Of a stretch of DNA of 21,308 bases, positions 5,291 through 19,767 are shown one piece after another (positions within the stretch are counted from its first letter, which is position 1; the number at the start of each line of letters is the position of its first letter). Below the pieces are notes generated by a model. The model made no database searches. It saw only the letters and a list, made by a program, of their open reading frames with translations, and was not told the DNA's origin. The position numbers and the translations under genes were made by a program. The stretch comes from a virus (Duplodnaviria > Heunggongvirae > Uroviricota > Caudoviricetes), in IMG/VR virus record IMGVR_UViG_3300007747_000074, positions 1-21,308 of that record; one strand, 5' to 3'.

Positions 5291-5581
5291 TCACAAATAT
5301 CCCTCCTTTCTCCAGATTTCTTGTGTGCGAAAAACACCTTCTGCATGCATCAGGCGTAATTCTTCTTTGGTGTAATCGCTGGTTTTTACCCGCCCGTCGA
5401 TTAGATCGTGGCATGAGCTACAGGCAATCGCCGCCTGCATATCGTGTGGTTTTGTCGCTGTTCCGCACGTTCCCGCCAGTCGGTAATGCGCCAGCACAGA
5501 CGTTTCCGGATCGTGATTGCAGTAGCCAGGAATTCTGACGGTGCACATCTGCCCCCGCGCCGCTTTACGTAAATCCACCAT
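5291..5581 (-). CDS. YbcO-like (DUF1364) putative Zn-binding nuclease, nin region
   Basis: 96 aa; MVDLRKAARGQMCTVRIPGYCNHDPETSVLAHYRLAG.CGT.TKP..ACSSCHD resembles DLP12 YbcO as I recall it (same length, conserved Cys/His); start overlaps the upstream gene stop (TAATG). Confidence 0.7.
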   Translation of the reverse strand: MVDLRKAARGQMCTVRIPGYCNHDPETSVLAHYRLAGTCGTATKPHDMQAAIACSSCHDLIDGRVKTSDYTKEELRLMHAEGVFRTQEIWRKEGYL

Positions 5582-6180
5582 TACGCAAACTCCAGCAGCT
5601 GCGCGGTCACATTTTCGACTTGTTCCGGAGAGGAAAATTTACGGAACAGAATCCAGTTCCACAGCACATTCAGAACAGATTTATAAACCTGCTGAAACTC
5701 GGTTTCGTCCATATTCGCAAAAGCGATGGATTTCGCCCGACGCCCATGGCTACCATCAGGATAAAGATGCTCGGTGTAAAATCCGGCCTGAATGGTTACC
5801 CACTCGCGGAAAGCCTCAAACGACTTTAGCAATGCCGTATCCCGGGTTCTGCGTGTCGCAACTGTATTCAGATATTGCTCTGCGGCTTCGCTCAGAGCTG
5901 GCGTATGTTCCCGGCCTACTGATTCACATAGGTAATCAACGAATCCTGAAACCAGCTTTCGTTCGCGAGGCGTGATCGCCCCACCGACCGGAGTCCAGTA
6001 ATCGAATCCCAGTTGCAGGAGTTTGAAAAAACGCTTGTGGAATGCGTAGTTACGCACACGCTTAAAGTCTGCGTGTATCCACTCGCCTATTTTGATTTGA
6101 TGCAAAAAATCGCAACTCTCCGGCGTCGCCGGGAGAAGTAGTCCAGAAGAGGTTTGTTTGACCAGTTGTATATGCGCCAT
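5581..6180 (-). CDS. Phage nin-region protein (DUF1367-like), function unknown
   Basis: 199-aa ORF translationally coupled to the YbcO-like gene; family name recalled from lambdoid prophage nin regions, not verified. Confidence 0.55.
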   Translation of the reverse strand: MAHIQLVKQTSSGLLLPATPESCDFLHQIKIGEWIHADFKRVRNYAFHKRFFKLLQLGFDYWTPVGGAITPRERKLVSGFVDYLCESVGREHTPALSEAAEQYLNTVATRRTRDTALLKSFEAFREWVTIQAGFYTEHLYPDGSHGRRAKSIAFANMDETEFQQVYKSVLNVLWNWILFRKFSSPEQVENVTAQLLEFA

Positions 6181-6458
6181 TTCTCAATCTCTCGATGGCG
6201 CAGTGCAGCAGATGCCAGTTGTTCAGGCTGACGAATAAAGTATAAATAAACTGGCTATGGTGTAAAGCTCCACATAACATGAACAAACACTACATATCAA
6301 ATAGCTGATACAAGGATAGAAATACAACACTTATTATTAAAAACGATTAGATAAATTACATTTTAATGTTATGAAAAAGTTCTTTTTTATCATAACATTT
6401 CAACAAAAGCATTACAGATGCACATCCCGTCATCATCAATTATTTAAGGTGGTTAAAC

Positions 6459-6545
6459 ATGGAAAATAACAACTATGCACATCTCGCTCCTTTTTTATCC
6501 GTAATCCTTTTCGCTGGCTGTTTTATATGGGCATTATTTTTATAA
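6459..6545 (+). CDS. Candidate small hydrophobic peptide (28 aa)
   Basis: ATG at 6459 preceded by strong SD aaggtgg (6446-6452); hand translation MENNNYAHLAPFLSVILFAGCFIWALFL, stop TAA 6543-6545; single predicted TM helix; in an AT-rich non-coding island; upstream hairpin (6365-6399). Confidence 0.35.
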   Translation: MENNNYAHLAPFLSVILFAGCFIWALFL

Positions 6546-6992
6546 AGTAGCCGCATGATTAGTTTCTGGAATCATGTTTCCCACTCAAATCATTAACATT
6601 TGATAAGATATATCTAAAAGGATGCCTTTACATTATTTGATGCGTATATGATTTATTTATATGCACAGTAAAGGCATCCTGGAAATAATCAAGATTAATG
6701 ATATATTGCTTATCTCATCCCCCACTGTCTTTCACCCGGAAAACATTTATCGTTAAAAATATATCATAAGTAATTAAATTGAAATTTCAGAACACAACTA
6801 ATGCACACAATAAGATTCAGTAACAGTAATCTATGCGGACTATATCGAGATTTTTTAGTTAAACTTTAATAAGTTATTCCTAACACACAGAATGCACAAA
6901 CTAAAAGTAAAACAAATAGTTATACGAAAAACAACCATATTGATTCTATCTTCTCCTCTAATCAACATATCAATTATGTGTTTCATAACAGC

Positions 6993-7028
6993 TTGACATA
7001 ACCCTCAAAAAGGTGCATTTATAATGCA
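6993..7028 (+). promoter_or_regulatory. Candidate promoter with NsrR-like inverted repeat overlapping the -10, upstream of the YeaR-like gene
   Basis: Perfect TTGACA (6993-6998) and TATAAT (7020-7025) but 21-bp spacer; inverted repeat TGCATT-tat-AATGCA (7014-7028) resembles the core of the NsrR site (ATGCATTT-N-AAATGCAT) as I recall it. Confidence 0.4.
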
Positions 7029-7047
7029 TGTTTTATGGGAGGTGGTT

Positions 7048-7389
7048 ATGACACACAAGAGAATTCCTAAAGACTGGGTAATCAAACGCTCAACTCCGTT
7101 CTTCACAAAAGAGAACGTACCTTCAGCGTTATTAACACATCATAATACAGCAGCAGGTGTTTTTGGACAGTTATGCGTGATGGAAGGTACTGTAACATAT
7201 TATGGTTTTGCTGATGAGAATGCTACTGAACCGGAGATAAAAGTAGTCATTAATGCTGGCGCTTTTGCAACAAGCCCACCACAATACTGGCACCGTGTTG
7301 AACTAAGCGATGATGCTCAGTTTAATATTAACTTTTGGGTAGCTCCAGACTTCTCAGGCGAAAAAGTCTATACCGCAAAAAAAGAATAG
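7048..7389 (+). CDS. YeaR-like DUF1971 protein (cargo gene)
   Basis: 113 aa from ATG 7048 (SD gggaggtgg at 7037-7045); RSTPFFTKENVPSALL...CVMEGTVTYYGFADENATEP...INAGAFATSPPQYWHRVE..DDAQFNINFWVAPDF parallels E. coli YeaR as I recall it; ORF first ATG is 7024. Confidence 0.7.
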   Translation: MTHKRIPKDWVIKRSTPFFTKENVPSALLTHHNTAAGVFGQLCVMEGTVTYYGFADENATEPEIKVVINAGAFATSPPQYWHRVELSDDAQFNINFWVAPDFSGEKVYTAKKE

Positions 7390-7471
7390 CCACGCTATAA
7401 ATATCTTATTAACTAGTCCCGGCGTGGTTCTTTCCCCGCTGGGTCTTTTACTCAGATTAGTAGTCTACGAA

Positions 7472-7579
7472 TCAGAGCCTCCGTCTGCCAGTTCGGATTC
7501 GTACCTCGCAGAGGTCTTTCCTCGTTACCAGTGCCGTCACTATGACGGTTAAACAGATGACGATCAGGGCGATTAACAT
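7472..7579 (-). pseudogene. hok-family toxin remnant (HokD/RelF-like), degenerate at both ends
   Basis: Hand translation from ATG (complement of 7577-7579): MLIALIVICLTVIVTALVTRKDLCEVRIRTG matches the HokD core, then diverges (GRRRL-stop); the +1 frame continues QTE... suggesting an indel; no HokD-type MKQQKA N-terminus (in-frame stop upstream). Confidence 0.5.
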
Positions 7580-8026
7580 CGTTAAACGTCTTGCAGGACG
7601 CGTAATGTTAACTGGGGCTTTTCTCTATCTACCTTTGGTGTTCATGCCCGAGGCAGATAGCCTCAAGCACCCACAGCAATTCTAACTATCCAATACATCA
7701 CTGCCAACACTTTAAACTCTTACCCTTTAAAACAAGAACAAAATTCAACCAATCAGCATTGGGCGTATACTCATATCCTAGAGAAAACAACTCTTTCTGT
7801 ACTATTTATATCCATATGATTTATAAGCATTTGCCACTTGCCATAGCCGCACAATGACAGTTTGCCATTTGATGTCAATAGATAAAAATGATCGTTTTCA
7901 ATGAGTTACATACTTGCAAGGCGTTGCACATCAGGCCCGATTACGTCAGTATCAAAAGATTACAGATGGTGCATTACTGCCACCTCGCCTTAATGTTCCA
8001 GAACTCTCCAACTTGAGGAATTTTCA

Positions 8027-19391: not shown

Positions 19392-19541
19392 ATGAGATAT
19401 GACAATGTTAAACCATGTCCATTTTGTGGTTGTCCATCAGTAACGGTGAAAGCCATTTCAGGATATTACCGAGCGAAGTGTAACGGATGCGAATCCCGAA
19501 CCGGTTATGGTGGAAGTGAAAAAGAAGCACTCGAACGATGA
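19392..19541 (+). CDS. ralR: Restriction-alleviation protein RalR/Lar-like, apparently truncated (49 aa) by an in-frame TGA
   Basis: Hand translation MRYDNVKPCPFCGCPSVTVKAISGYYRAKCNGCESRTGYGGSEKEALER-stop (TGA 19539-19541); downstream in the same frame is NKRTTGNNNGGVHV-stop (to 19586), the C-terminus of the 64-aa protein as I recall it. Confidence 0.55.
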   Translation: MRYDNVKPCPFCGCPSVTVKAISGYYRAKCNGCESRTGYGGSEKEALER

Positions 19542-19578
19542 AATAAACGAACCACTGGAAATAATAATGGAGGTGTTC

Positions 19579-19767
19579 ATGTATAAAATTACCGCCACTA
19601 TTGAAAAGGAAGGTGGCACTCCTACTAACTGGACAAGATATTCAAAATCTAAACTAACGAAATCAGAATGCGAAAAAATGCTCTCAGGTAAAAAAGAAGC
19701 AGGCGTTTCCAGAGAGCAGAAAGTAAAACTGATAAATTTTAATTGCGAGAAACTTCAGTCCTCGTGA
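19579..19767 (+). CDS. ydaC: YdaC-like small protein
   Basis: MYKITATIEKEGGTPTNWTRYSKSKLTKSECEKMLSGKKEAGVSREQKVKLINFNCEKLQSS; alternative upstream starts at 19567 and 19507 exist in the ORF; position between ralR and xis. Confidence 0.5.
   Translation: MYKITATIEKEGGTPTNWTRYSKSKLTKSECEKMLSGKKEAGVSREQKVKLINFNCEKLQSS

Follow-up and report, generated by a model that had tools for sequence, protein, structure and literature searches.

Nitric oxide (NO) destroys the iron-sulfur cluster of the repressor NsrR, whose canonical operators (ytfE, hcp, hmp and ygbA) lie on the core chromosome and take the form of a 23-bp 11-1-11 inverted repeat, AAGATGCATTT-N-AAATGCATCTT, with a ATGCATTT core. Among phages, control of a moron by a host regulator is known from the Fur-repressed stx1 of Stx1 phages, in which the cargo gene sits among lambdoid early and late genes and brings its own promoter with an operator for the host regulator. 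Two chromosomal genes of the DUF1971 family come closest to the locus described here. E. coli yeaR-yoaG encodes a DUF1971 protein (PDB 3bb6) behind a promoter containing an NsrR 11-1-11 site; it has a 46-nt leader, is completed by yoaG, and needs NarL at -43.5, where the published NarL site reads TAACCAATAAATGGTA. Salmonella STM1808, a 113-aa DUF1971 gene fixed in the chromosome after dsbB, is placed in the NsrR regulon and given a role in virulence by papers that cite Karlinsey et al. 2012 (PMC7527575 among them).

Control by NsrR is already known for STM1808-type genes of Salmonella, as are host-regulated morons as a kind; our literature searches turned up neither a prophage-borne DUF1971 or STM1808 gene nor a published NsrR-controlled phage moron. 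Here we describe a prophage gene of the STM1808 type which, judging from its promoter DNA, is likely to be a moron under NsrR control that is derepressed by NO. Like the stx1 moron it is cargo with its own promoter and a putative host-regulator operator among lambdoid early and late genes, but its regulator would be the NO sensor NsrR instead of Fur, and its cargo a stress-tolerance gene instead of a toxin.

The prophage locus

The window, by which we mean the whole 21,308-nt stretch of DNA analysed, is a Rac-like lambdoid prophage. Over positions 6850-7420 it is 100% identical to the prophage that E. coli 7/2 carries at ttcA, and phage vB_EcoS-666R9 matches positions 6600-7700 with 99.9% identity. 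The gene of interest and the phage gene on its upstream side are as follows.

5581-6180, - strand: DUF1367 gene, among the flanking phage genes, with YbcO, Q, the lysis genes and trkG
7048-7389, + strand: DUF1971 gene of the STM1808 type, 113 aa, start ATG at 7048, stop TAG at 7387-7389

Phage replication, nin, Q and lysis genes surround the cassette on the - strand; the DUF1971 gene is on the + strand, opposite to these neighbours, as would be expected of a moron. It is non-essential cargo with a promoter of its own, separate from the phage operons and variable in its presence among related phages. The preliminary description had called the gene prophage-borne and a possible moron; the first is confirmed by the identity to the ttcA prophage and to vB_EcoS-666R9, and the second is supported by the opposition of strands. 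A non-coding stretch of 860 bp with 28-31% GC precedes the gene; on its downstream side come a hok-family gene, convergent with it, and a KilA-N gene, with no + strand ORF directly after, and these 3' neighbours vary between carriers.

A module of DUF1367 gene, AT-rich spacer and DUF1971 gene recurs in lambdoid prophages (loci L084-L087) with differing downstream cargo, namely hok plus KilA-N, a hypothetical gene, QueH or an MFS transporter. This recurring module with changing cargo marks the nin region as a hot spot for the insertion of morons.

The DUF1971 gene and its family

An ORF finder opens the reading frame at 7024, while the ATG at 7048 fits both the Shine-Dalgarno sequence and all homologues. 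The product matches Pfam DUF1971 (PF09313) over profile positions 1-80 of 80 (E = 3e-26), PDB 3dl3 with E = 3e-59 and E. coli YeaR (PDB 3bb6) with E = 5e-25. Identity to YeaR is 44%, as against 77-80% to the Salmonella genes that follow dsbB, and 77-83% to chromosomal genes of Kluyvera, Klebsiella, Citrobacter, Salmonella, Vibrio and Aliivibrio. The term YeaR-like, as first applied to this gene, is thus correct for the family, but the gene is not a copy of yeaR, an identity that we rejected at 44%. Residues H32 and H82, reportedly needed for zinc binding and NO resistance, are invariant columns of the alignment and are kept in the 113-aa STM1808.

In Salmonella arizonae and Klebsiella michiganensis the DUF1971 gene directly follows nhaB-dsbB. 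Since dsbB is STM1807, we infer that the DUF1971 gene next to it in Salmonella is STM1808. In E. coli K-12, umuC comes directly after dsbB and there is no STM1808-type gene.

Promoter elements and the candidate NsrR operator

The elements upstream of the DUF1971 gene, as read from the sequence, are these.

6993-6998, + strand: -35 hexamer TTGACA
7010-7032, no strand assigned: candidate NsrR operator, 11-1-11 inverted repeat AAGGTGCATTT-A-TAATGCATGTT, matrix score 26.6 bits
7016-7021, + strand: ancestral -10 position, reading CATTTA here, operator positions 7-12, 17 bp from the -35
7020-7025, + strand: perfect TATAAT, operator positions 11-16, 21 bp from TTGACA (spacer 6999-7019)
7038-7042, + strand: Shine-Dalgarno GGAGG, separated from the ATG by 5 nt and largely kept among the aligned orthologues

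The preliminary description had noted perfect TTGACA and TATAAT hexamers with a 21-bp spacer, had placed the -10 inside TGCATT-TAT-AATGCA at 7014-7028, and had likened that palindrome to the NsrR core site; it also proposed a scan with an NsrR matrix. The hexamers and the 6-3-6 palindrome are present at these positions. By itself the palindrome is unremarkable (3 matches with at most 2 mismatches in the window, 2.5 expected). It forms, however, the core of a 23-bp candidate NsrR site, 7010-7032 (AAGGTGCATTTATAATGCATGTT), which has the 11-1-11 form of the canonical operators and differs from the NsrR consensus AAGATGCATTTNAAATGCATCTT at three positions. This is the sole such match in the window, and none of 100 shuffles gave one.

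For scoring we used a symmetrised matrix built from 27 E. coli CFT073 sites (Table 4 of PMC5320621), with published sites scored leave-one-out. At 26.6 bits the site takes second rank beside the published sites, falling between ytfE (30.6 bits) and hcp (25.1 bits) and above tehA, yeaR, ygbA and hmp, so that the likeness to an NsrR site is confirmed at the level of the best E. coli operators. The matrix P per position is 1.7e-10 to 5.3e-10. The score is far above background, the second-best in the 21-kb window being 12.5 bits, so that the refuting outcome named in the preliminary description, a score at background level, did not arise, and the site is the top-scoring one of the entire 32-kb prophage locus. 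All 23 positions, core and flanks, fit the matrix, with 14.3 bits in the left half-site and 12.1 bits in the right. The matrix is also specific: in 484 kb of related loci outside these promoters only 7 matches reached 17 bits, and three marine loci account for every one of them.

The candidate operator ends 16 nt before the ATG, and must therefore overlap the -10 and the start site; indeed it covers every candidate -10, while the -35 lies 11 nt upstream of it. The leader would be about 16-20 nt long. Promoter strength is uncertain, since the 21-bp spacing of the perfect hexamers is outside the sigma-70 working range and CATTTA is a poor hexamer. An alternative -35 partner for TATAAT is ATAACC (6998-7003), with a 16-bp spacer and three of six bases matching. 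A consensus promoter scan did not report the DUF1971 promoter, its spacer being out of range.

Conservation of the operator in orthologues

We scanned 80 loci, one genome per species, with the NsrR matrix. All but one of the 56 enterobacterial orthologue loci have, as the best site of the locus, a candidate NsrR site of at least 17 bits (median 29), and the enterobacterial sites are centred 27-39 nt before the ATG. The exception, Leclercia adecarboxylata (L013), has lost one nucleotide from the middle of the operator, some 40 nt ahead of the ATG, and the resulting 11-0-11 repeat scores below 17 bits. Most Vibrionaceae loci are without an NsrR site in the matrix scan. Loci of Neptunomonas and Photobacterium (L056, L064, L077) have strong NsrR-like sites of 18-24 bits, not immediately in front of the DUF1971 gene but at a distance of 0.3-1 kb from it, and these probably serve neighbouring genes.

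In a promoter alignment of 16 species, 10 of the 15 invariant columns are inside the operator. DNA similarity between the window and its chromosomal orthologues begins at 7007-7010, right at the operator, and stops at the stop codon. The occurrence of the operator at the same place in the orthologues, together with similarity running from operator to stop, means that the phage took the DUF1971 gene along with its operator.

Orthologues of the Kluyvera and Klebsiella type also have a hexamer resembling a -35 (such as TTTACA or TTGACG) that precedes the NsrR site by 11 nt, and the mean match of the orthologues to TTGACA peaks at that offset (3.47, against 2.6 or less at other offsets). In the orthologues the -10-like hexamer, TATTTT, TATATT or CATATT, occupies operator positions 7-12, 17-18 bp after the -35-like hexamer and 4 bp upstream of the window's TATAAT. 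At this ancestral position the window's CATTTA matches TATAAT at two of six bases. TATAAT at operator positions 11-16 is found only in the prophage lineage, in which a sister haplotype reads CATTTT followed by TAAT; what sets the window's TATAAT apart from this haplotype is the base at the centre of the operator, which is unconstrained. Both hexamers of the preliminary description are thus real, but by this alignment TTGACA-21 bp-TATAAT is not the ancestral promoter pair, the orthologues having a 17-18 bp register.

In promoter type (short leader, -35 placed 11 nt before the site) the window belongs with the Kluyvera/Leclercia group and not with the dsbB-following group. Salmonella serovar India has a strong NsrR site just upstream of its STM1808-type start codon (26.9 bits), like that of the window. 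In STM1808 the site is centred 39 nt before the ATG, whereas the window gene is prophage cargo with its site 27 nt before the ATG, a Kluyvera/Leclercia-type promoter and a shifted -10.

Orthologues of the Kluyvera/Leclercia type (L005-L025, L035, L082) also have a Fur-box-like palindrome, GATAATGAGATTTATTATC, with 13-17 of 19 matches, located 83-85 nt upstream of the ATG and just upstream of the -35. The window's Fur box is at background level, decayed by substitutions and by a 7-bp deletion around 6972-6990.

Distribution and variation among carriers

By sensitive blastn the prophage allele is present in 457 of 5426 complete E. coli genomes (8%), always with at least 95% nucleotide identity, and in these 5426 genomes the STM1808-type gene occurs only as the prophage allele. 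E. coli 7/2 and ATCC 43896 are examples of carrier strains. Among 50,697 phage records three have a DUF1971 gene of any kind, and all three are of this Rac-like phage type; the gene is kept also in phages deposited as complete phage genomes.

Variation was assessed in 40 sequences of the prophage lineage (28 distinct), which resolve into 13 promoter haplotypes. The three segments compared were the following.

6850-7002, upstream: 19 of 153 columns variable, nucleotide diversity 0.030
7003-7044, promoter core: 17 of 42 columns variable, nucleotide diversity 0.132
7048-7386, coding sequence: 22 of 339 columns variable, nucleotide diversity 0.018

Variation in the promoter core exceeds that of its flanks 4- to 7-fold (Fisher P = 1.4e-7, with columns treated as independent and relatedness and recombination ignored). 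The changes fall on operator positions 3-5, 11-12, 17 and 21, on the spacer that precedes the site and on a block ahead of the Shine-Dalgarno sequence, while TTGACA, its spacing to the site, the Shine-Dalgarno core and the GCATT...TAAT core are constant in the 13 haplotypes. The right half-site is nearly constant (one G/A position) and changes only at positions 17 and 21. The main operator haplotypes are AAGGTG, which is that of the window, AACACG, AAGGAG and AAGATG. The left half-site scores 14.3 bits in the window type, 8.4 bits in the type with AACACG and 5.4 bits in that with AAGGAG, and is weakened to one of the latter two values in about 78% of carrier genomes; the window-type promoter is found in 99 of 458. 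Unlike the canonical NsrR operators of the core chromosome, then, the candidate operator resides on a mobile prophage and its left half-site turns over rapidly among carriers. Full-site scores of the 13 haplotypes run from 17.7 to 28.6 bits, and all lie within the range spanned by proven operators, among them those of hmp, ygbA and yeaR. In the coding sequence the window and the main variant differ by 7 synonymous and 3 non-synonymous codons, and the gene looks constrained, as under purifying selection.

The variability of the core may stem from tuning, decay or recombination. The presence of 13 haplotypes within 42 bp, beside nearly fixed flanks and coding sequence, raises the idea that the promoter/operator core of the moron is under diversifying selection; lysogens may then tune the NO threshold or the basal level of expression through the left half-site and swaps of -10 register. 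More speculatively, the high-affinity site could act as an NsrR decoy, amplified sites in a replicating induced prophage titrating scarce NsrR and derepressing the host NO-defence regulon. We consider this reading unlikely in either form.

Putative mechanism and alternatives

On the view that we favour, an STM1808-type gene, carried with its native promoter and operator, forms a moron cassette within the nin region of a Rac-like lambdoid prophage. Host NsrR, the iron-sulfur repressor, would bind the 7010-7032 repeat and thereby shut out RNA polymerase, since either candidate -10 hexamer and the transcription start are covered by it. Once NO nitrosylates its cluster, NsrR would let go of the DNA and the lysogen would express the gene; by analogy with Salmonella STM1808, the protein would then help growth under nitrosative stress. 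From sequence we infer NsrR binding, repression, the response to NO, expression in the lysogen, the choice of -10 and the benefit to the lysogen; a fitness effect on the lysogen is held with less confidence than NsrR control itself.

The comparison with yeaR bears on an alternative in which NarL or NarP activates the gene in response to nitrate and NsrR represses it, as in that operon. With NarL at the published -43.5, the NsrR site of yeaR falls at about -43 to -21, where it covers the NarL site and the -35 but not the -10; the operator over the -10 noted in the preliminary description thus differs from the chromosomal yeaR arrangement. A shared register of the window's TATAAT with TAAAAT of yeaR was rejected on the same ground, NarL at -43.5 putting the yeaR -10 at TACCCT, downstream of the operator. 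NarL control, which that description gave for the chromosomal yeaR operon, is likewise not borne out at the window promoter, for no NarL 7-2-7 site with three or fewer mismatches exists in 6181-7048, and the window-wide count equals chance; an FNR site is absent near the DUF1971 promoter, again with a window-wide count equal to chance. What speaks for dual control is membership of the YeaR protein family and a weak heptamer pair, TAACCCT-CA-AAAAGGT (6999-7014), which overlaps the operator's left edge in a position similar to that of TAACCAATAAATGGTA in yeaR. The pair is, however, centred near -25 and not at -43.5, and the window gene departs from yeaR-yoaG in its shorter leader, in its operator over the -10 and start site instead of the -35, and in having no yoaG downstream, which makes dual control very improbable. 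The palindrome might instead serve another protein, either a phage repressor or a different Rrf2 regulator, given that short AT-rich palindromes are common repressor targets. Nothing in the analysis points to such a protein, and no similar palindrome occurs elsewhere in the window, immunity region included, a result on which we rejected a phage operator family. With 23 of 23 positions fitting the NsrR matrix, and the 23-bp site kept upstream of non-phage chromosomal orthologues in many genera, this reading is hardly credible.

A different concern is that the operator is a relic, which came with the captured gene into a prophage where the promoter has been crippled or silenced, the gene being not meaningfully expressed or not NsrR-controlled. 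The 21-bp spacing between the perfect hexamers, the poor ancestral -10, the left half-site degraded in most carrier genomes, the promoter core 4-7 times more variable than its flanks and the decayed Fur-like box would all fit such a history, and the 860 bp of AT-rich DNA upstream (28-31% GC) could attract H-NS silencing. Set against this is the apparent purifying selection on the coding sequence. Across 13 haplotypes, moreover, the -35, its distance to the site and the Shine-Dalgarno core do not change, and the right half-site hardly does. No haplotype scores outside the range of proven sites, and the gene persists in 8% of complete E. coli genomes as well as in complete phage genomes. On balance a relic operator seems to us quite improbable, and an NsrR-controlled, NO-derepressed moron remains the reading that we prefer.

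With such control, lysogens probably gain an NO-switched defence gene that is otherwise absent from E. coli. If the cassette works as proposed, about 8% of sequenced E. coli strains owe an additional NO-inducible stress gene to lysogeny, one that answers to the host's own NO sensor from the outset, and nitrosative-stress tolerance would be one more trait that lambdoid phages spread. At least three operator variants occur naturally, a ready series for relating NsrR half-site strength to repression.

Neighbouring features

The remaining features of the window are listed here.

839-2314, - strand: trkG potassium-transporter gene, downstream of the lysis genes and adjoining a ParB-like gene
6619-6680: perfect 13-bp inverted repeat, AGGATGCCTTTAC / GTAAAGGCATCCT, with a 36-nt loop, in the AT-rich spacer
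7418-7450, + strand: possible terminator, hairpin CCCGGCG...CGCTGGG then TCTTTT; RNA fold of a 91-nt stretch, z = -1.9, weak
7475-7579, - strand: Hok/Gef-family toxin ORF, convergent with the DUF1971 gene
19507-19767: RalR/RalA type I toxin-antitoxin pair, with the RalA sRNA at 19585-19763 (- strand; Rfam, 225 bits) opposite the ralR ORF

A consensus terminator scan reported no terminator, and did not flag the hairpin and T-tract at 7418-7450. In the Rfam search the RalA match was the sole one, with nothing near the DUF1971 gene, and no Sok RNA reached the Rfam gathering score beside the hok-family ORF. The Hok/Gef region at 7475-7579 has 93% identity to the hokW/sokW locus of the Stx phages 933W and Sakai, and trkG is a hallmark cargo gene of Rac. 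The 13-bp inverted repeat in the spacer adjoins a second segment that is hypervariable among carriers (6660-6750).
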